43,752 nucleotides of DNA from Promethearchaeota archaeon. Its GTDB lineage: Archaea; Asgardarchaeota; Lokiarchaeia; Sigyniarchaeales; SOKP01. Below the pieces are notes generated by a model that saw nothing but the letters and a program-made list of their open reading frames with translations, searched no databases and was not told the DNA's origin. Within the stretch, counting starts at the first letter, position 1. Each line of letters opens with the position of its first letter. The stretch lies in the NCBI GenBank assembly GCA_048938005.1, contig JBHLMQ010000023.1:1-43752 (forward strand), read 5' to 3'. A program made the translations under genes and the position numbers. Below, in pieces: positions 34,170 through 43,492 of this stretch.

Positions 34170-34853
34170 ATGAAAGATCGAGGAGAAAATAGTTTTATTA
34201 AATTATCTAGATTTGCAGCTAGATTATATGATAAAATGATGCAATTAGAACCAATGAAAGTTCAGAGAGTTCAGATTGCTCAAGAGTTATTAAATATTAT
34301 TAATAAAGGGAGATTACTCGATATTGGAACAGGACATGGACGATTATTAGTAGAAATTAATAATATAAATCCCAATATTGAACTATATGGCATTGATATT
34401 TCAGAAAAAATGATAGAACTTGCTAAAAATAATCTTAATAATATTCATGCTAATCTTCAGCAAGGGAATATATGTTCTACTAATTTTCAAGAGGATTTTT
34501 TTGATCTAATAACATGTACAGGAAGTTTATATCTTTGGAATTCTCCCATTGAAGCTTTAAATGAAATAAACCGTATTTTAAAACCTGGTAAAGTTGCAAT
34601 ATTATTTGAATCTCATAAAGAATATAATAAACATGAATTGAAAGAAGGAATGAAATCTAATCTTCAAAATGAAAGCTTTTTAAATCGAAAAATAGTTCCC
34701 TTTTTCTTAAAAAAGCAGTTAAAAATGACCTATCAATTAGATGAATTAAATGAGATTATAAATAAATCATTATTTAGTGCCAATTTTACTATTAATAAAA
34801 TAATTTTAGCAAATTTACCGATTTGGTTAAAAATTGAACTGAAAAAAGTATAA
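34170..34853 (+). CDS. Class I SAM-dependent methyltransferase
   Basis: LLDIGTGHG, GIDISEKMI, FDLI, RILKPGK. Confidence 0.9.
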   Translation: MKDRGENSFIKLSRFAARLYDKMMQLEPMKVQRVQIAQELLNIINKGRLLDIGTGHGRLLVEINNINPNIELYGIDISEKMIELAKNNLNNIHANLQQGNICSTNFQEDFFDLITCTGSLYLWNSPIEALNEINRILKPGKVAILFESHKEYNKHELKEGMKSNLQNESFLNRKIVPFFLKKQLKMTYQLDELNEIINKSLFSANFTINKIILANLPIWLKIELKKV

Positions 34854-34866
34854 TATGTGAAAAAGA

Positions 34867-35736
34867 TTGAAATTGAAAGGAATTGATAAGTTTCGTGAAA
34901 AGATACCTAAATTCTCAGGAAAAAAAATAGCATTTCTTCCGCTCTATTTACTTTCTGTTCTGATAGTTAGTATTTTTATTCAATTCCTATTTGATATTTT
35001 ACCAACAATATTACCATCAGATGGAATACTAGGATTTTTTCTCCCATGGTTTCCGGTCTTTGGAGTGCTTATGATGGGGCTAATAGGATTATTCTTAGTT
35101 TTTCAAATGTGGTTCCAACGAGATCGCTTAAAAGCGAAATATGGGCAATTATCTTATCAAAAAGTATTTCTTGCGGGATTTGGGGGTGTAGTCGTTATAT
35201 TCAGCATAATAATTCATAATTATATTGCATTTTATAATTGGAATGTTAGATTTTGGTCTCAATTTCCCTATTTTGTGCTTTCAACACCCTTAACTTCATA
35301 TATCACTACAATTTCTCTAATTTTTGAATATTTGCGTTTGATTTGTGGATTATTCTTAGGTCTATTGGGAATATTAATGATTTTTAGAGCAATTTCTACA
35401 TTTGGCTTTGATTACATGACCGTCGTATATCTATATTTTCCTGAAGAAAGCAAACTGCAAGATCATAAAATTTACTCGGTGTTACGGCATCCAACATATG
35501 GAGGTCTTCTAATAATATGTTTAGGAGGTGCTGTTCTCCAATTAAATCTCTATTCAATTATATTCTTCTTTATTTTACACTTCGGAATGTTTATTCATAT
35601 TCACTTTGTGGAAGAAAAAGAATTAATTAATCGATTTGGCAATTCATATAAAGAGTATAGAAAAAAAATCCCGGCTTTTTTTGTGCGTCCAAAAAATTGG
35701 GGTCAATTTTTTAAATTTATTTTAGGAAAAGAATAG
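34867..35736 (+). CDS. Isoprenylcysteine carboxylmethyltransferase/PEMT-family membrane methyltransferase
   Basis: IYSVLRHPTY, EEKEL..RFG..Y.EY.KK.P; multiple TM helices; TTG start. Confidence 0.85.
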   Translation: MKLKGIDKFREKIPKFSGKKIAFLPLYLLSVLIVSIFIQFLFDILPTILPSDGILGFFLPWFPVFGVLMMGLIGLFLVFQMWFQRDRLKAKYGQLSYQKVFLAGFGGVVVIFSIIIHNYIAFYNWNVRFWSQFPYFVLSTPLTSYITTISLIFEYLRLICGLFLGLLGILMIFRAISTFGFDYMTVVYLYFPEESKLQDHKIYSVLRHPTYGGLLIICLGGAVLQLNLYSIIFFFILHFGMFIHIHFVEEKELINRFGNSYKEYRKKIPAFFVRPKNWGQFFKFILGKE

Positions 35737-35820: not shown

Positions 35821-36141
35821 ATGACGACTTTGGATGAAATAGAAAAAAAATATAGGGAAAAGGAAGCTGAAATTCAAAAAGAAATTTCAATAGATTTTGA
35901 TTCTGTTCTTGGCAAAATCTATTCTAAATATGAGCAAGACTATCGGGATTTGGGCAAAGTTAAGAAAGAGAAAAGAGAATTAAAAGATAGAATCTCAGAA
36001 TTAAAAAATATTTTGAAATTATTTAAAAAAGAAATTAAAATATTAACTCTTAACAAAAAAGAAGCTCTGAAGAAAAGATTAGCTGAACTAAAAAAAGAAA
36101 AAGCTGAGGAAATCAAGAAATTGAGTGCTGAGATTGAATAA
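35821..36141 (+). CDS. Hypothetical highly charged coiled-coil protein
   Basis: 106-aa Lys/Glu-rich helical ORF with ATG start. Confidence 0.65.
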   Translation: MTTLDEIEKKYREKEAEIQKEISIDFDSVLGKIYSKYEQDYRDLGKVKKEKRELKDRISELKNILKLFKKEIKILTLNKKEALKKRLAELKKEKAEEIKKLSAEIE

Positions 36142-36471: not shown

Positions 36472-37035
36472 TTATTTATTTTCTTTGTGAAGTAAGATAA
36501 TAGTTATTAGATTTGCTAAGTTTGAGAAATCAGTAGTCTCTGGATTATCGTTTTGAGGATCCCAACCAAATAGCATCTTTGCTGCCTTACTATATTTCAA
36601 TACATACCATTTCATAATTGTCATTTTGTGGTTCACATCTGAGACAAATTCTATTCGAGGTTTGAAATGATGAAATCCACGTATTACTGATACATCGTCT
36701 GGATTAGCCCTCATATTTTTTATCCAAGTTGCGTTCTCTCCTCTTGCAGCAAAGATAACAATAGTTCCTTCATATTGTCTGTATTCTAATGGAGTTCTTC
36801 TCGTTTTACCAGTTTTCCACCCTTTTGTCTTTAAAATTAGAAAAATCTTACCGAATCCTAATAAAGGCAATAATCTTGCTCTATACAAAGGGATCATCAA
36901 ATATTTATTTAGATTTTTCCATCTTTTTAAAGTCTTTTTTTTAGATACTTCATCTTTATAATGAAAGTTAAACATAACCGATCCAGGACGCGGTAATTGT
37001 TCATTATTAGTTTTAATATCGTTCGATTTAAACAT
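36472..37035 (-). CDS. Deazaflavin (F420)-dependent nitroreductase family (DDN-like) oxidoreductase
   Basis: LILKTKGWKTGKTRRTPL, A..G..ATWIKNMRANP. Confidence 0.8.
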   Translation of the reverse strand: MFKSNDIKTNNEQLPRPGSVMFNFHYKDEVSKKKTLKRWKNLNKYLMIPLYRARLLPLLGFGKIFLILKTKGWKTGKTRRTPLEYRQYEGTIVIFAARGENATWIKNMRANPDDVSVIRGFHHFKPRIEFVSDVNHKMTIMKWYVLKYSKAAKMLFGWDPQNDNPETTDFSNLANLITIILLHKENK

Positions 37036-37154
37036 TATCCTTCTTAAAATAATTTTAATATTTATGAATTTTAAACAATATTTTTCACTTAAATTTATTG
37101 AGATCTATTTTGAGAATAATAGTATAGAGCCCTAATTACGTTCTTATATTTTTT

Positions 37155-38255
37155 TTATTTTATTTCAAGACATTGGGCCAAACATCTTTTAACACAAGCA
37201 TTACAATTTATACATTTTTCAGGATTTTTTAAATCAACTTTTTTATCTTTTTCATCAAATAAATATAAGTTTCTGGGACATATTTCAATACATACTTTGC
37301 ATCCAATACATTTATCTCTCTTGATAATAATTTGGCCATACGGTTGTAATTTGTATTCACCAAACAAAAATTTCATTTTCTCCTTACCTTTTTTCCAAGT
37401 CTTTGCGCCTAATTCACTTTTATAAATTGGAGTTAAACCGTGAAAATCTTCTGCCATAATCAATGTAATTAAAAGAGAAGATATTATATTCCAAATTAGA
37501 TAGAAAATATCAAATATAATAAACAGATTAAATAGAACTATTAAAATAAGGATTATCCCCTCATAAATCCATACTTTTATTTTTCCTGCCTTCGTAGGAA
37601 AACTGGGCAAAATCAACATAGATCCATAAATTATAATAACGATAATTAAAATTGTATCTAAGTAAAGAATTAAATTCAAAATTGGTAAAAAAATAGCAGA
37701 TATCCAATAAATAGTTGAAATTAAAAGAATTAAAATAAAGAAATATAATGTAGCCATTTCGATTCTGTTAGAGATAGGAAACTTTACTATTCTCTGATCC
37801 TCTGATTTATTGAATTTTTGATTTATAAAAGAAGGGATATCTTTTGCATACACAGGTCCAAATTTTACGTTCCATCCTGTTTTTTTTTTAATGATGAGTG
37901 GATCTATTCCAGGAGCACTTAATTGAGGTAAAATTAAAGTTCTATGGGACACAAGAAGATCAATTCCACTAGTTTTTATAATTGACAAGACAGAATCTGT
38001 ATGAAAATCATCTCCACAGGCTCCACACCATACATTAATCCCTCTTGAAGGAGCAATTAATAAATAACAATTAAGGCTTTTAATTGCCTTTAAAACTCGT
38101 TTTACAGTTAAAATAAAATTACATGTAAGTAAAACAGGGCTTTCATTTGTAGGGTTTCCTATTTTTATAAGAGTTGGTTCTATAGGAAAACCAGTCCATC
38201 TTAAAAAATAACTTAGAAATAATTTTATTGACTCTTTTACCTTCATCTTTCTCAT
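37155..38255 (-). CDS. HgcAB-like fusion: corrinoid-binding (CdhD/HgcA) domain, TM helices and 2x[4Fe-4S] ferredoxin
   Basis: IGNP...SPVLLTCNF.LT, GINVWCGACG (cap helix), HRTLILPQLSAPG, TGW.VKFGPVYAKDIP; about 4 TM helices; CIGCKVCIEICP and CINCNACVKRC. Confidence 0.92.
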   Translation of the reverse strand: MRKMKVKESIKLFLSYFLRWTGFPIEPTLIKIGNPTNESPVLLTCNFILTVKRVLKAIKSLNCYLLIAPSRGINVWCGACGDDFHTDSVLSIIKTSGIDLLVSHRTLILPQLSAPGIDPLIIKKKTGWNVKFGPVYAKDIPSFINQKFNKSEDQRIVKFPISNRIEMATLYFFILILLISTIYWISAIFLPILNLILYLDTILIIVIIIYGSMLILPSFPTKAGKIKVWIYEGIILILIVLFNLFIIFDIFYLIWNIISSLLITLIMAEDFHGLTPIYKSELGAKTWKKGKEKMKFLFGEYKLQPYGQIIIKRDKCIGCKVCIEICPRNLYLFDEKDKKVDLKNPEKCINCNACVKRCLAQCLEIK

Positions 38256-38263
38256 ATCTAATA

Positions 38264-38935
38264 TTATTTATTATTTAAGGTCATTTTTTTCAACCTAAAT
38301 AACTTTAGAGTATCCAATAAATAATACTTTTCTTCAATTAAAGAAAAATTATGATCTTCAAGTCTTTTTTCAATATTTTTTAAATATTTGGTGGTTAATT
38401 GTGATTTAAAATATGTAATAATTACTAAGGGAATTCTGACAAAAAAATATATTAATTTCTTCCAAATCTTCTGAGGCTTTACCTCATCAACTAAAATAAA
38501 TTCTCCATCGTCCTTTAATATTCTATTAATTTGTTCCAAGCAATAATCTTGCTCGTTTTGATAAAATTCGCTGAATGATAAAATAGCTATTATTTTATCA
38601 AAAGATTTATCAGAAAATTGTTCTTCTAATTCAATTACCGGCATTCTAATAATTTGGATGTTATCAGTTAATTCTTCTTGTTTAATATTTTTATTTGCTA
38701 CTTCGAGCATTTTTTCAGAATAGTCAATACCGGTAACTCTTACTCCTTTTTTAGCACATAAAATTGCAAAAGTTCCAGTTCCCATACCGATGTCTAAAAT
38801 CGTCTCATCCTTTTCCACCAAATTGTTTGCAATATGATTTTTTATTTTTGATAACCTTCCTAATGTTAAAATTTCAATTCCTTTATCATATTTTTCTGCT
38901 TTCTTTTCTAAAGCTTTCATGTATACATAAGACAT
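38264..38935 (-). CDS. Class I SAM methyltransferase resembling the corrinoid protein-associated (CpaM-like) type
   Basis: MSYVYMKALE....YDKGI.ILTLG N-terminus, LDIGMGTG, LSFSE, ILVDEV; 8 nt upstream of the HgcAB-like gene. Confidence 0.85.
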   Translation of the reverse strand: MSYVYMKALEKKAEKYDKGIEILTLGRLSKIKNHIANNLVEKDETILDIGMGTGTFAILCAKKGVRVTGIDYSEKMLEVANKNIKQEELTDNIQIIRMPVIELEEQFSDKSFDKIIAILSFSEFYQNEQDYCLEQINRILKDDGEFILVDEVKPQKIWKKLIYFFVRIPLVIITYFKSQLTTKYLKNIEKRLEDHNFSLIEEKYYLLDTLKLFRLKKMTLNNK

Positions 38936-39015
38936 TTTAAAGAGAACCTTGAATTAATTTTTATTTTTTATGTTATAACTCTTAATTAGAAAAATAGTTG
39001 TTAGTAAGAGAATTA

Positions 39016-39879
39016 TTAATATATTTCTTTTTTATTTTTTATTTCAATAGATGATGCTAAAATCTCATTCATTCCTTTTAAATGAAATTGGACAAGCTCA
39101 TGGGATGTACTGAAAATTGTCATTGGTAAATCAATTGGAATAGGAATTTTAAAGAAACTTTTTCTATTATCTATTACAATTAATCCAAAAATCTCTTCTA
39201 ATTTTAATACAATGTTTTTTAGAATTTGAAAACTATAAGATTTTCTTTGTTCTGGATGGAGAAAACCTTCAAGATTTCCAAAAATATTCTTAACTTTATT
39301 AAAAGCTGGTGATTTAAGCATACGAAACTCAATTTTAGGAAGTTGTTTTTGGAGATTTATAACTGATCCATCTTGGAACACTAATTTTATATCTAAATTA
39401 TCCTTCCTTTGATTCAGTACTGAAATGATTTTATCATCAAAATGAGATAATGGGAAGAATGAATAAAAGGATTTTTTTGCTGTATCAATCAACATATATA
39501 AATATTCTTGAATTCTTTCCCTTCCAGCTATCCCTATAAAAGGAATTTCTTCGGTTTCTTCTGACTGGTAAATTTTATCTATGATTTCGACACATTTATT
39601 TCCATTATCTTGGATCTGTTTAGTATAATTTAATAATTTTTCTTGAATGTATTCTCTGGGCTTAACCATAAAAAGTTTCTTTCTTCCTCTTGGAATTATA
39701 TCAATAAAACCTTTTTGATGAAGTCTTACCATTGTTTCATAAATTTTAGGTTGAGGGACTCCACTATATTTATGTAATTCATGAGCACTGAGAATATTGT
39801 ATTTTATTAAAGTTTCAAGCGTTTTAGCTTCGTATTGAGTAAAATTTAACCTTTTTAAAAACACAGTTAGTTTATCCAT
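39016..39879 (-). CDS. TrmB family transcriptional regulator
   Basis: L..LNFTQYEAKT..TL, SAHELHKYSGVPQPKIYE...RL..KGFI wHTH plus effector-binding domain. Confidence 0.9.
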   Translation of the reverse strand: MDKLTVFLKRLNFTQYEAKTLETLIKYNILSAHELHKYSGVPQPKIYETMVRLHQKGFIDIIPRGRKKLFMVKPREYIQEKLLNYTKQIQDNGNKCVEIIDKIYQSEETEEIPFIGIAGRERIQEYLYMLIDTAKKSFYSFFPLSHFDDKIISVLNQRKDNLDIKLVFQDGSVINLQKQLPKIEFRMLKSPAFNKVKNIFGNLEGFLHPEQRKSYSFQILKNIVLKLEEIFGLIVIDNRKSFFKIPIPIDLPMTIFSTSHELVQFHLKGMNEILASSIEIKNKKEIY

Positions 39880-39959
39880 AGGGTATAGAGAATTGATTTT
39901 GTTTTTTATTAAATTGTGTATATTATATTTAAGTTAAATCATAATATTTTTAAATAACA

Positions 39960-39979
39960 TATACTACTATAGTAGTATA
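39960..39979. promoter_or_regulatory. Perfect 20-bp palindrome, probable TrmB operator
   Basis: TATACTACTATAGTAGTATA between the divergent trmB and ABC exporter genes, with TACT/AGTA half-sites. Confidence 0.75.
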
Positions 39980-40042
39980 AATATATAAATTTTTGTTATT
40001 ATCTTAAATTAAAGATTTTAATATAAACAAAAAAGATTAATA

Positions 40043-41068
40043 ATGTTAGTTAATAAAAAAGGAGCTAAGGAAGACTTTACTAATTCAGGGAGTAATCATA
40101 TTATAATTAAAGCAGATGATGTTATTAAAAAATATCCAAATACAACTGCATTGAAAAATGTCTCATTTTCAATATATAAAAACGAGATATTTTGTATTAT
40201 TGGACCAAATGGTGCTGGGAAATCTACAATAGTTAAATTATTAACAGGTCAAATAAAACTGACTCAAGGCTCTATAAAAATTAATAATATGGATCCAATT
40301 TTAAATCGAAGGCAATTACTTGGAACATTTGGTCTTGTTCCCCAGGAAATCGCTTTATATAATGAATTAACCGGGCGAGAAAATTTAACATTTCATGCAA
40401 GATTATATAATGTTCCTAAACAAAAGCTACAACAAAGAGTAGATGAGATGCTAGATATAGTGGGGTTAACAGAACGTCAAAATGATTATGTTGGAACATA
40501 TTCAGGTGGGATGAAAAGGCGCCTTCAACTTGTTAGAGCATTACTACATGAACCCGAAATTATTATTTTAGATGAACCAACATTAGGGATAGATGTTCAA
40601 TCTCGAAAAGCAATTCATGATTATATTTTAGAATTACCTAAGCAAGGAAAAACTATATTATTAACAACTAATTATATGGAAGAGGCAGAACGATTAGCAG
40701 ATCGTATCATCATTTTAGATACATCAATAATTGAAGGTCCTGGAAGACTTCCTGAAATTCAAAAAAAAATTTTTCCAAACACAATAATAGAATTCAAAAC
40801 AACTGTCGATGCTATAAGTTCTGAGTTTTTTGATGGTTTTTTAATTAATACATTACATGGAGAAATTATTTTGGAAAAAAAAATAAGCGAACAACATAGA
40901 TTATTTCAATTTATATTTGAAACATCAGATTTAAAAGAAATTCTTGAAAAATTTATTAACTATACCAATTCTCATGACATTTCTATAGATGAATTCACAA
41001 TTAAAAGACCTACTTTAGAAGATATCTTTTTAAAACTTACGGGAAAAGGATTCAGGGATGAAAATTAA
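40043..41068 (+). CDS. ABC-2 type exporter ATP-binding subunit (DrrA-like)
   Basis: GPNGAGKST, YSGGMKRRL, LDEPT, C-terminal PTLEDIFLKLTG; H-loop reads TTNYMEEA. Confidence 0.95.
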   Translation: MLVNKKGAKEDFTNSGSNHIIIKADDVIKKYPNTTALKNVSFSIYKNEIFCIIGPNGAGKSTIVKLLTGQIKLTQGSIKINNMDPILNRRQLLGTFGLVPQEIALYNELTGRENLTFHARLYNVPKQKLQQRVDEMLDIVGLTERQNDYVGTYSGGMKRRLQLVRALLHEPEIIILDEPTLGIDVQSRKAIHDYILELPKQGKTILLTTNYMEEAERLADRIIILDTSIIEGPGRLPEIQKKIFPNTIIEFKTTVDAISSEFFDGFLINTLHGEIILEKKISEQHRLFQFIFETSDLKEILEKFINYTNSHDISIDEFTIKRPTLEDIFLKLTGKGFRDEN

Positions 41069-42251
41069 AAAGAAACTTGCGGTAAAATTTAAATTAATGA
41101 AGTTAAGACAGTGGTTTTATGACTTGATAACAATCTTACGAAAAGATTTAATTTCTACTAAGAGAGTTAAAAAATATTTTTTCGGTGCTATAATTCCTCC
41201 GATAGTTATCTTAATTGTTTTCTCTACTTTATCAGGGATAACTAATCCTGAAACATTTTCTGTTATGGTTGTTGATGAAGATAAAACTGAGTATTCTAAT
41301 ATAATGAATAATTACATTGTAAATATTAGTAGCGAGTTTGCTCCTTGGTTCAATGTAATAATGGTGGATACATATGAAGAAGCTAAAGCAAAACTACTTA
41401 ATTTTGAGAGTTTGGGACTGATATATATCCCTGCAGGATTTCAAACGAATATAACAGCAAATAATCCAGATATTAAGGGAAAGATTTATTTAGAAGTTGA
41501 AAACATAAATGATGATTATGTAAAAAATTTTATTCAAAGATTAGATGAAGCAATTTTAACATTTAATCAAGAAATTCATGTATCTTATGGACATGTAGAT
41601 GGATTTGCTATCATAGCTCGAAAGGATTACGTTATTGATCAAAACTTAAGCATGGTTCGAGGTTTGGTAATTGGAACTATCAGTATGTTTAGTTTAACCT
41701 GTGGGCTCTTTTTTGGTTCATTAAATGTGGCAAAGGAATATGATGACAATACAATAATTGAAATTGTAAATAGCCCTATAAAACGTACTGCTTATATTGC
41801 ATCAAAACAATTAATTGCTGTAATATTAGGATTAATTGTTGTTGGAATTTTAGCTCCTTTATTATTTTTTATCTTTAATATAGAATTTCGCGGAAATATC
41901 TTAAACGTGATAAGTGCCTTTATAATGTCAACTTGGATCCATGCTTGCATTGGAGGTTTAATAGGGTTAAGAATTAAAAATAAAATGACCACAATACTTG
42001 TAGCTATTGTAATTTCGGTGTTTTTATGGTTTTTTATGGGGGGTTTTGCCCCCGTTAGAATGTTAGGAGATCAAATCTATGTAATTTCAAGATTTCTTCC
42101 TGGGACCTATTGGTTTGAAATATTCTTTTCAGAAACATATTACCCTTCAATATCATATTCAATATTTCGTCTAGATATTTTAGGAATTATGACAATTTCT
42201 TTTACGATAATAATTTGGTATATTATATCTAAAAAGGGGTTTAAGCTTTGA
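41058..42251 (+). CDS. ABC-2 type exporter permease
   Basis: TM1, extracellular domain (VVDED) and five further TM helices; GGFAP, LPGTY; overlaps the ATPase stop. Confidence 0.88.
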   Translation: MKIKKKLAVKFKLMKLRQWFYDLITILRKDLISTKRVKKYFFGAIIPPIVILIVFSTLSGITNPETFSVMVVDEDKTEYSNIMNNYIVNISSEFAPWFNVIMVDTYEEAKAKLLNFESLGLIYIPAGFQTNITANNPDIKGKIYLEVENINDDYVKNFIQRLDEAILTFNQEIHVSYGHVDGFAIIARKDYVIDQNLSMVRGLVIGTISMFSLTCGLFFGSLNVAKEYDDNTIIEIVNSPIKRTAYIASKQLIAVILGLIVVGILAPLLFFIFNIEFRGNILNVISAFIMSTWIHACIGGLIGLRIKNKMTTILVAIVISVFLWFFMGGFAPVRMLGDQIYVISRFLPGTYWFEIFFSETYYPSISYSIFRLDILGIMTISFTIIIWYIISKKGFKL

Positions 42252-43492
42252 AGAAATCGAAAAAAAATATTAAAAAATCTTCAATAAGTATTATTAAAGA
42301 GGAATTTTTAAAAAACATCAAAATAGTATTTCGGGGCCCTACTCGTACTTTATTTTTACTTTGTTTACTTTTTCCCATAACTTATTTAATTTTTATGAAT
42401 CTCATCTTTGGTGCGGTAAATTTTAATTATCCATTTGCTGTTGTTATACCCGATTACAATTCCAACGATGAATTAAATTATGCATTAAATAACAATGAAT
42501 TAAACAATACTCAAGAATTCTTGAGTTATTTAAACAATAACGATTTAGTAGGGAAAACAATTGTAAAAAGTCATATTAAAGCTATTGGTATAACAGAAGA
42601 AGAATTTAAAGATCAATTATATAGTGAAGAAATTGTTATGATAGTTATTTTGCCCGAGAATTTTGAAAATATAATTTCTGCTGCGAAAAATAATTCATGG
42701 TCAGGGGGTGAAATAAATATTACTTTAAAATGCTTAAATATTAATGAGGATTATCTTAAAAATCTTTATTTCGGATTTCAACGTAAACTAAAAGCGTATT
42801 ATGATACTGTGCTTAATCATGAAATAGAAGTTATTTATTTTTATAATGATGCTGAACCTAATAGAGAAACATTTCCAAGAATGTGGACTATTGGAATAGG
42901 TGCGCTAGGATTTGTTGCATTAGTTGCTTCCATGATAATTGGTTCAGCATTTATTTTTAATGAAAAAAACAATAGAATGGCACAAGAACTTGCTTTATCC
43001 CCAAATTTGAATCTTTATTATACATTCATTGGAAAGATTTTATCGACAATAATTTTGTCTCTTTTAATAAATTTTACACTAGGGGCAATAATTATATTTA
43101 TGTGGATAGGGCTTCCTTTTCCAATACACTTTTCGGGATTTATATTAATTGTATTAGGAACAATCATTTTAGGGTCATTAATTGGTGCTATTCTCGGCAT
43201 GTTAATACCAGAACAAGTATTTACTTTCCCAATTTCAATGTTTTTGGTCCTTGCTACTCTGTTTTTATGTGGTGGATTTATAAACATTGAATTATTTGGG
43301 CAACCCTTAAGATTTATCGTTGAACTAATTCCTTTTACATATTGTTTTAGTATCCTTAATAACACAATTTTAATTGGTGATATCCCTACTCCAAATTATA
43401 TCTTCGGTTTAATAATATATATTTTTATCTTTTTTGCTGTAGGATTAATTATCTATAAAAAACGCATCACTTCTCAAAAATTCTTACAATAA
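42248..43492 (+). CDS. ABC-2 type exporter permease
   Basis: Same architecture; EK...M.QEL..SP, LCGGF, IPFTY; TTG start overlaps the upstream stop by 4 nt. Confidence 0.88.
   Translation: MKKSKKNIKKSSISIIKEEFLKNIKIVFRGPTRTLFLLCLLFPITYLIFMNLIFGAVNFNYPFAVVIPDYNSNDELNYALNNNELNNTQEFLSYLNNNDLVGKTIVKSHIKAIGITEEEFKDQLYSEEIVMIVILPENFENIISAAKNNSWSGGEINITLKCLNINEDYLKNLYFGFQRKLKAYYDTVLNHEIEVIYFYNDAEPNRETFPRMWTIGIGALGFVALVASMIIGSAFIFNEKNNRMAQELALSPNLNLYYTFIGKILSTIILSLLINFTLGAIIIFMWIGLPFPIHFSGFILIVLGTIILGSLIGAILGMLIPEQVFTFPISMFLVLATLFLCGGFINIELFGQPLRFIVELIPFTYCFSILNNTILIGDIPTPNYIFGLIIYIFIFFAVGLIIYKKRITSQKFLQ

Follow-up and report, generated by a model that had tools for sequence, protein, structure and literature searches.

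What does a fused relative of the mercury-methylation proteins HgcA and HgcB do in an Asgard archaeon, and do the genes that surround it serve the same task? The question is raised by a 43,752-nucleotide (nt) stretch of contig JBHLMQ010000023.1 (hereafter the window), which belongs to a 3.72-Mb, 95% complete Promethearchaeota genome (G000). Here, genes for a TrmB-family regulator, the S-adenosylmethionine (SAM) methyltransferase CpaM, an HgcAB-like fusion protein and a DDN-like putative F420H2-dependent reductase stand back to back with a three-gene ATP-binding cassette (ABC) exporter. A first-pass annotation had proposed these genes, together with a perfect palindrome in the shared promoter, and an open-reading-frame check recovers all seven genes and the palindrome at the coordinates given below, the DDN-like, HgcAB-like, methyltransferase and TrmB genes all on the minus strand and the three ABC genes divergent from them on the plus strand; profile searches agree with the family proposed for each of the seven. 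The annotation went on to read the region as a single inducible module. The reading that we prefer, and to which we would assign a probability of about 60%, is that two separately conserved units lie side by side: the cpaM/hgcAB-like pair, with the DDN-like gene as a lineage-specific addition, and a trmB/ABC-2 exporter cassette.

The HgcAB-like gene (37155-38255, minus strand) encodes a protein that scores 370.8 bits against the HgcAB_like model NF043039 (cut-off 285). Comparison with HgcA and HgcB profiles had been suggested as a check of the earlier assignment, and it places the protein within the HgcAB-like family and outside the canonical ones, with 166.5 bits against canonical HgcA (NF040863, cut-off 275) and 44.3 bits against HgcB (NF040864, cut-off 99); the true HgcA proteins of two other loci (L094 and L095) reach 461 and 480 bits against NF040863. 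The corrinoid domain is recognised by PF03599 (56.7 bits), and Fer4 Pfam families match in the C-terminal 2x[4Fe-4S] ferredoxin part, which holds two CX2CX2CX3C motifs. In an alignment of 17 diverse HgcAB-like homologs, the cap-helix cysteine C77 (within NVWC) and the eight cluster cysteines are invariant, and a D-x-x-G-x-x-P-x-x-K-S-x-L loop is conserved after the last membrane helix. The C-terminal vicinal Cys pair of HgcB is not present in the window's protein, which ends ...CLAQCLEIK.

An AlphaFold2 (AF2) model of the protein (pLDDT 79.9, pTM 0.73) displays a Rossmann-like domain, four long membrane helices (residues 161-189, 195-218, 224-247 and 250-271) and a ferredoxin domain. With an even number of helices, the corrinoid and ferredoxin domains would face the same side of the membrane. 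Foldseek matches this model to the published HgcAB model 9a0b_A (E 7e-9, 279 columns) and to the corrinoid domains in CFeSP, the corrinoid iron-sulfur protein (root-mean-square deviation about 2.9 Å over 125-129 columns, 29-30% identity). Proteins 87% identical to the window's already carry the label "HgcAB-like fusion protein" in NCBI records, and the source records of the nearest homologs assign them to Promethearchaeota, Odinarchaeota, Thorarchaeota or Heimdallarchaeota. That the organism uses corrinoids is indicated by CdhE, the corrinoid subunit of acetyl-CoA decarbonylase/synthase, found in the genome at 469 bits; neither CobS (TIGR00317, PF02654) nor CbiB (TIGR00380) was found in this 95% complete genome, so that the organism may depend on imported corrinoids.

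The gene directly upstream, cpaM (38264-38935, minus strand), encodes a class I methyltransferase that scores 258.9 bits against NF043040, the model for corrinoid protein-associated methyltransferases (cut-off 180). Its glycine-rich SAM motif (G50/G52/T53/G54) is invariant in 65 sequences, and its next-best families are the UbiE/MenG quinone C-methyltransferases, at 77.7 bits. A gap of 8 nt separates the cpaM stop from the first hgcAB-like ATG, as had been claimed; a second in-frame ATG begins 9 nt downstream of it, in line with the start positions of relatives.

How widespread this arrangement is can be judged from the best 80 of about 590 genome loci encoding HgcAB-like relatives (designated by L-numbers). 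A CpaM-type methyltransferase lies directly upstream on the same strand in 60 of the 80, across many bacterial and archaeal phyla. Ten more loci have it fused to the HgcA-like N-terminus, seven as single-chain methyltransferase-HgcA-HgcB proteins and three as methyltransferase-HgcA proteins with a separate HgcB, and three have it 0.7-1.8 kb away on the same strand, which brings the pairing to 73/80. Two further loci have their upstream DNA cut, and five, including the canonical hgcA-hgcB loci L094 and L095, have no CpaM-type gene. Every one of the 65 stand-alone neighbour methyltransferases scanned, the window's included, matches NF043040 at E ≤ 1e-10. Within the window's family, cpaM adjoins the hgcAB-like gene in 20/20 genomes with an HgcAB-like gene over the cut-off. 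Pairwise distances among CpaM proteins and among HgcAB-like proteins correlate over 62 loci with r = 0.82, a value reached in 0 of 999 permutations (a control that does not remove shared host ancestry), and in 34 of the 62 loci the two proteins have the same nearest neighbour. Adjacency, fusions and correlated distances together indicate that cpaM and the hgcAB-like gene form a functional unit. They also support, along with the SAM-dependent methylation of the corrinoid in canonical HgcAB (PMC11588087), the earlier proposal that the methyltransferase and the corrinoid/ferredoxin fusion act together.

The pairing is not new, as NCBIfam names both partners. A literature search found no paper on CpaM as a corrinoid protein-associated methyltransferase, and the pairing may still be published; in the literature on fused HgcAB, no description of a methyltransferase partner was found, supplements being outside the search. 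Prediction of a complex between the corrinoid domain of the HgcAB-like protein (residues 1-160) and CpaM gave a median score of 0.29 against a mark of 0.32, a value that weighs neither for nor against the partnership. A third universal partner was sought through a Pfam tally of 72 immediate upstream and 72 immediate downstream neighbours of the pair and none was found; these neighbours are heterogeneous, the commonest families being TetR upstream (5/72) and a class I methyltransferase downstream (4/72). In L020, L034 and L059, a gene for a small ICMT/PEMT-like membrane methyltransferase adjoins the pair in the same orientation. When the 100 nt upstream of cpaM from nine loci were aligned, no more than a TTATAA-like element emerged, and this was shared loosely.

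Within the genus, what lies upstream of cpaM differs between loci. Three loci have a ZIP-family metal transporter gene there, in place of trmB and on the same strand as cpaM (L129:9930-10778, minus; L134:9841-10689, minus; L130:1383-2231, plus); PF02535 matches the L129 and L134 copies at 162 and 170 bits, and the L130 copy is recognised by sequence similarity only. A Ras-family small GTPase gene adjoins cpaM in another (L145:6946-7644, plus), and in a fifth a gene for a DDE transposase is found some 1 kb upstream of cpaM (L136:5042-6349, plus).

How might the pair work? In canonical HgcAB, the corrinoid is brought to Co(I) by way of HgcB, a SAM-dependent step yields methyl-Co(III) that bears a Cys thiolate ligand, and the methyl group is transferred to Hg(II) (Zheng 2024, PMC11588087). 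By analogy, the ferredoxin domain of the HgcAB-like protein would reduce its corrinoid to Co(I), and CpaM would bind SAM and hand the methyl group to Co(I), giving methyl-Co(III) held by the cap-helix cysteine. The methyl group would then pass to an acceptor at the membrane, one that is probably not mercury.

Set beside known systems, the pair shares its domain order and close gene spacing with the family of HgcAB-like fusions (NF043039; called "fused HgcAB" by Podar et al., 2015, and Lin et al., 2023) and CpaM (NF043040), and it falls in the same Asgard clade noted by Lin et al. (2023). The pair itself is no different from this family; what differs is its surroundings, with TrmB/ABC-2 genes upstream and a DDN-like gene downstream. 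Like canonical HgcA and HgcB, the window's protein has a CFeSP-type corrinoid domain, a cap-helix cysteine, a membrane domain and a 2x[4Fe-4S] ferredoxin, and SAM is the likely methyl source. Unlike them, its ferredoxin is fused, its AF2 model has four long membrane helices as opposed to the five reported for HgcA, a dedicated Rossmann-fold SAM methyltransferase accompanies it, and the C-terminal Cys-Cys tail is missing. CFeSP and MeTr of the Wood-Ljungdahl pathway (2ycl, 4djd) offer a second likeness, in the corrinoid fold and in the use of a separate methyltransferase to load the corrinoid and of an Fe-S centre to re-reduce it. The donor there is methyl-tetrahydrofolate via a TIM-barrel MeTr, whereas in the window it would be SAM via a class I methyltransferase, and the HgcAB-like protein, unlike CFeSP, is predicted to be membrane-embedded with a Cys axial ligand. 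The methyl relay proposed for the pair, from SAM to cobalamin to substrate, also resembles that of TsrM and the class B radical-SAM methylases. The pair is not a member of that class: it has no radical-SAM domain, SAM binding is assigned to a separate Rossmann-fold protein and, since all eight cluster cysteines are present, there would be no site-differentiated cluster of the TsrM/class B kind.

The second unit lies upstream of cpaM. The trmB gene (39016-39879, minus strand), separated from cpaM by 80 nt, encodes a regulator with a winged-helix N-terminus (PF01978, 55.5 bits, cut-off 25.6), for which the sugar-sensing TrmB/TrmBL1/TrmBL2 equivalogs (cut-offs 500-650) give at best 50.3 bits against a cut-off of 650, and whose C-terminal 200 residues match no Pfam family. 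The divergent operon encodes a DrrA-like ABC transporter ATPase (40043-41068, plus strand; PF00005, 118 bits; 268 bits against TIGR01188 drrA, below the cut-off of 312) and two ABC-2 family permeases (41058-42251 and 42248-43492, both plus strand; PF12698, 96.4 and 75.2 bits; 23.5 bits against the drrB model, below the cut-off of 223). The ATPase and permease 1 genes overlap by 11 nt, the two permease genes by 4 nt.

The palindrome that had been described in the shared promoter occupies 39960-39979 and is indeed perfect: its arms TATACTACTA and TAGTAGTATA form a 10+10 inverted repeat without spacer, with the core TACTACT-N2-AGTAGTA, and we regard it as the probable operator of the TrmB-family regulator. 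At ≤3 mismatches no second copy exists in the window, none of 100 shuffles produced one, and the 3.72-Mb genome, which has 32 perfect 10+10 palindromes, likewise holds no other match. To its left is the A/T box TTTTTAAAT (39947-39955), a candidate TATA box of the trmB-side promoter, and to its right the A/T box AAATATATA (39980-39988), a candidate TATA box of the ABC operon that lies 55-63 nt upstream of the ABC ATG. Neither the palindrome nor the two boxes vary among the window, L021 and L139, in which the trmB-proximal intergenic DNA has diverged beyond alignment.

Conservation of this cassette follows a course of its own. Of 100 other family genomes, 16 encode a TrmB homolog (41-74% identity), and six of the seven TrmB loci fetched have the same divergent ATPase-permease-permease trio, at 56-69% identity. 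The TrmB homologs beside these six trios are 56-60% identical to the window's, and no CpaM, HgcAB or DDN match was found in the stretches fetched around them; three of the genomes concerned (G279, G071 and G174) carry an hgcAB-like gene on other contigs. The sequence TACTACT-N2-AGTAGTA appears once in the divergent promoter of 9/9 trmB-ABC cassettes. It has a single site in the whole of G000, the only genome searched whole, and none outside the cassettes in the fetched loci. Genes downstream of trmB differ among the cassette loci, and the cassette adjoins cpaM in three genomes only, the window's and those that show the L021 and L139 arrangement; among 21 family genomes bearing the cpaM/hgcAB-like module, just two (G000 and G113) show the linkage, to which L021 is added. 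The neighbourhood-conservation check that had been proposed for the region is thus borne out for the cpaM/hgcAB-like pair, in all 20 family genomes, and not for the cassette, linked to it in three. Because the cassette with its operator is conserved separately from the pair, regulator and palindrome would appear to belong to the exporter.

The six stand-alone cassettes (L162-L167, in G279, G331, G255, G071, G174 and G329) are in themselves a compact conserved archaeal regulator-operator-exporter unit. Near-palindromes with two mismatches in G192, G300 and G083 were set aside as chance matches, with no TrmB or ABC homolog beside them.

A precedent for such a unit is found in Pyrococcus, where TrmB represses a neighbouring ABC operon via TACT-N3-AGTA at the BRE/TATA box (PMC4158304); the TACT/AGTA half-sites of the window's operator match this published site. 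As with the Pyrococcus/Thermococcus TrmB and its trehalose/maltose ABC operon described in that source, the window combines a winged helix, an adjoining ABC operon and a TACT/AGTA palindrome at the promoter. On the other hand, the window's regulator has no sugar-binding effector match, it stands beside an ABC-2 exporter rather than a binding-protein-dependent sugar importer, and the spacing of its operator is TACTACT-N2-AGTAGTA as opposed to TACT-N3-AGTA (PMC4158304). The TrmB-family protein would, as a repressor, bind the palindrome, and the position of the latter between two divergent A/T boxes implies that the bound repressor would silence trmB and the DrrA-type ABC-2 exporter alike until released by a ligand. 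Read-through from the trmB promoter could co-regulate both units in the window's genome and two others, which would not be a general property of the module. RNA data were sought among 20 public runs holding the stretch, and no RNA run was listed. Sediment and mangrove are habitats in which the stretch occurs.

The remaining gene of the minus-strand series encodes the DDN-like protein (36472-37035) and follows the hgcAB-like gene after 119 nt. It matches PF04075 at 40.2 bits (cut-off 22), over profile positions 25-76 only, and TIGR00026 at 42.8 bits, below the cut-off of 46.35. Its AF2 model (pLDDT 89.7) finds, as its ten best Foldseek matches, exclusively FDOR-A/Ddn-type structures, five of which name F420 in the entry title, with 8d4w, 7kl8 and Ddn itself (3r5r) at the top with probability 1.0. 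Like mycobacterial Ddn/FDOR-A (3r5r, 7kl8, 8d4w), the window's protein has a split beta-barrel and the conserved stretch G-x-K-T-G-K-x-R-R-T-P-L; unlike them, it is archaeal, only 17-22% identical, equipped with a 60-residue N-terminal helical extension, and below the TIGR00026 cut-off. CofH (459 bits) and CofD (310 bits), both over their cut-offs in the genome, indicate that F420 can be made.

Does the DDN-like gene travel with the pair? It adjoins the pair in 8 of the 20 window-family genomes. Within the window's family (68 genomes), 13 genomes have both genes, 7 have HgcAB-like only, 19 have PF04075 only and 29 have neither, and in 5 of the 13 with both the two genes are on different contigs or 67 kb apart. 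One genome without an HgcAB-like match over the cut-off (G255) keeps a 77% DDN-like ortholog beside a syntenic PEMT gene, a second DDN paralog group, 51-58% identical, is located elsewhere, and in another family (f9) HgcAB-like-level matches occur in 23 of 76 genomes and PF04075 in none of the 76. The DDN-like gene is best described as a lineage-specific accessory of the module, for which a functional link is plausible but unproven.

Of the alternatives to two adjacent units, the one that survives best is the integrated, inducible detoxification module, in which TrmB senses a toxicant and de-represses both divergent operons, the DDN-like protein reduces this compound or its product, CpaM and the HgcAB-like protein carry out a methylation at the membrane, and export follows through the ABC-2 pump. 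We consider this unlikely, though it accommodates several features of the locus: the conserved operator shared between the divergent promoters, the co-orientation of trmB, cpaM, the hgcAB-like gene and ddn with short gaps (an arrangement repeated in L021 and L139), and the capacity to make F420. It has to contend with the six of nine trmB/ABC cassettes that bear the same operator core and stand without cpaM/hgcAB-like nearby, with the small number of genomes in which cassette and pair are linked, and with the independent distributions of PF04075 and HgcAB-like genes in the window's family and in family f9.

Several observations nonetheless weigh against the two-unit reading and deserve to be set out together. 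To our knowledge, HgcAB-like and CpaM proteins have yet to be studied biochemically. PF04075 matches nothing in the window's genome apart from the DDN-like gene, and in L135 and L032 it lies upstream of cpaM rather than downstream of hgcAB-like, with same-strand adjacency kept. The three linked TrmB/ABC cassettes are 74-87% identical to one another, as compared with 56-69% between the stand-alone ones and the window's, and the linked form may be a distinct, selected arrangement. Five Anaerolineae loci (L033, L038, L043, L089 and L096) embed the pair in TetR-controlled ABC-2/HlyD exporter operons. In one (L096:5585-13997) the order is TetR, methyltransferase-HgcA, HgcB, DDN-like, patatin-like phospholipase, ABC ATPase, two ABC-2 permeases and ABC ATPase, the DDN-like gene (PF04075, 60.6 bits) overlapping the hgcB stop; in another (L033:3513-16215) it is TetR, three ABC-2 permeases, CpaM, HgcAB-like, an unassigned 670-aa protein, two ATPases and HlyD. 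Cassette similarity, Anaerolineae operons and a single-copy DDN-like gene of mobile position all favour a functional link, one that the two-unit reading understates. Lastly, CpaM may not be strictly required and may act otherwise, because canonical HgcAB uses SAM without a separate methyltransferase (PMC11588087).

How far do the parallels reach? TetR-like clusters occur within 6 kb of the pair in 10 of the 80 loci and ABC ATPases in 14, the latter near chance by a rough estimate that is not a computed control, and the Asgard and Anaerolineae cases amount to two independent events only. Repressors, export and membrane methylation do recur near the pair; each is rare, and the independent events are few. 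The Anaerolineae operons make a "methylate and export" link possible but unproven. For the single TrmB-inducible module of the first-pass annotation, F420-type reductase and exporter included, this leaves some encouragement from the single-copy DDN-like gene and the Anaerolineae parallels, to be set against the six cassettes that do without the pair and a DDN-like adjacency in only 8 of 20 genomes. The hope that genomic context would disclose what HgcAB-like proteins do comes down to a weak clue, the exporter cassette being separate.

A more specific version would have a few Asgard archaea and, independently, Anaerolineae recruiting the CpaM/HgcAB-like relay into repressor-controlled ABC-2 operons with a DDN-type reductase, so as to reduce, methylate through cobalamin and export an electrophilic or hydrophobic toxicant; we regard this as quite doubtful. 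From cobalamin a methyl group can leave as a carbanion or radical; SAM on its own provides a methyl cation only. The target of such a route would by this chemistry be an electrophile, for example a quinone-like compound or a species of a soft metal or metalloid, and if the route were real the ligands of TrmB and TetR would identify it.

A second alternative reassigns CpaM. Here the HgcAB-like protein would take its methyl group from SAM directly, or carry out some other corrinoid reaction, and the target of CpaM would be the end substrate or product itself, perhaps a lipid of the membrane or a quinone. That canonical HgcAB needs no extra methyltransferase (PMC11588087) would fit, as would the UbiE/MenG quinone C-methyltransferases as next-best match of CpaM, the ICMT/PEMT-like genes that adjoin the pair in three loci and the second class I methyltransferase downstream of it in four of 72. 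The near-obligatory adjacency, the fusions, in at least two parts of the tree, of the methyltransferase directly N-terminal to the corrinoid domain and the co-variation of distances are better suited to physical partners than to consecutive steps of a pathway, and canonical HgcA groups with methyltransferase-fused relatives in our unrooted tree; we judge this alternative improbable.

The last alternative, that the fusion protein methylates mercury in earnest and stands in for HgcA and HgcB combined, is very improbable: homology to both proteins, the conserved cap-helix cysteine and [4Fe-4S] motifs, and the remark of Podar et al. (2015) that an in-vivo negative does not exclude catalytic ability (PMC4646819) speak for it, and against it stand the failed HgcA and HgcB models, the missing C-terminal Cys pair (its HgcB counterpart being important for methylation according to the introduction of Zheng 2024, citing Smith 2015; PMC11588087), the absence of mercury- or metal-resistance genes from the commonest families of the pair's immediate upstream and downstream neighbours, and Pyrococcus furiosus, in these reports the only cultured carrier tested, which gave no methylmercury above controls (PMC4646819; PMC10083202).

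The two-unit reading bears on a question that has stood since 2015, when fused HgcAB-like proteins were left with an open function; surveys of mercury-methylation genes routinely filter them out or take them as an outgroup. Their sole near-universal partner is a SAM methyltransferase, which agrees with the 2024 finding that SAM feeds canonical HgcAB, and TetR/TrmB regulators, ABC-2 exporters, small membrane methyltransferases and DDN-like reductases accompany them occasionally, in particular lineages. No new kind of system comes to light in the window: it holds an ordinary member of a known family beside an unrelated but neatly defined regulator-exporter cassette, and the comparison narrows the question of HgcAB-like function. 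On our reading its TrmB regulator would belong to the exporter and not to the methyl-transfer pair, and TACTACT-N2-AGTAGTA would make a simple archaeal regulator-operator pair whose ligand could reveal the exporter's cargo.

A tree of 80 HgcA-like domains was built by a quick IQ-TREE analysis and left unrooted, as only about 125 columns align with CdhE outgroups. The window's protein falls in an Asgard clade of six (support 100), next to which are a Hadarchaeota sequence and then Dehalococcoidia and Bathyarchaeota sequences, a neighbourhood that points to transfer between domains. The seven triple fusions make up a single clade (support 94), from which the methyltransferase-HgcA forms stand apart, so that fusion to CpaM is found in at least two separate parts of the tree. 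HgcAB-like genes over the cut-off are present in 59 of the 301 sampled phylum genomes and in 9 of 22 other genomes of the window's genus; the cpaM/hgcAB-like module is accessory and patchy in the phylum.

In the same unrooted, quick tree, canonical HgcA groups with Asgard methyltransferase-HgcA + HgcB forms (support 98) and then with Chloroflexota ones (support 88), the loci concerned being L091, L094, L095, L093, L087 and L096. By this grouping a CpaM-type SAM domain is present in the closest kin of the mercury methylase, which bears on the SAM site in HgcAB. A second HgcA-type system is encoded on another contig of the window's genome (C75), whose branch in this part of the tree is long (1.66). 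It consists of a 559-aa CpaM-like methyltransferase-HgcA-like fusion (L002:739-2418, plus) and a separate 101-aa HgcB-like ferredoxin (L002:2478-2783, plus), the latter ending ...SCCG, with a vicinal Cys pair as in true HgcB. Its scores are all below the cut-offs (NF043039, 176 bits; NF040863, 173 bits; NF043040, 134.5 bits). Upstream of the fusion is a 203-aa protein with weak matches to WrbA/NAD(P)H:quinone oxidoreductase-type flavoprotein models, and frames of 550-700 aa that resemble the fusion are common in the phylum.

Beyond ddn, the window continues on the plus strand with a second class I methyltransferase (34170-34853), a PEMT/ICMT-type membrane methyltransferase (34867-35736) and a small coiled-coil protein (35821-36141). 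The first two of these are syntenic with the module in seven relatives (L021, L129, L130, L134, L135, L139 and L145), and the gene for the small coiled-coil protein recurs adjoining hgcAB-like in L017, L018 and L032.

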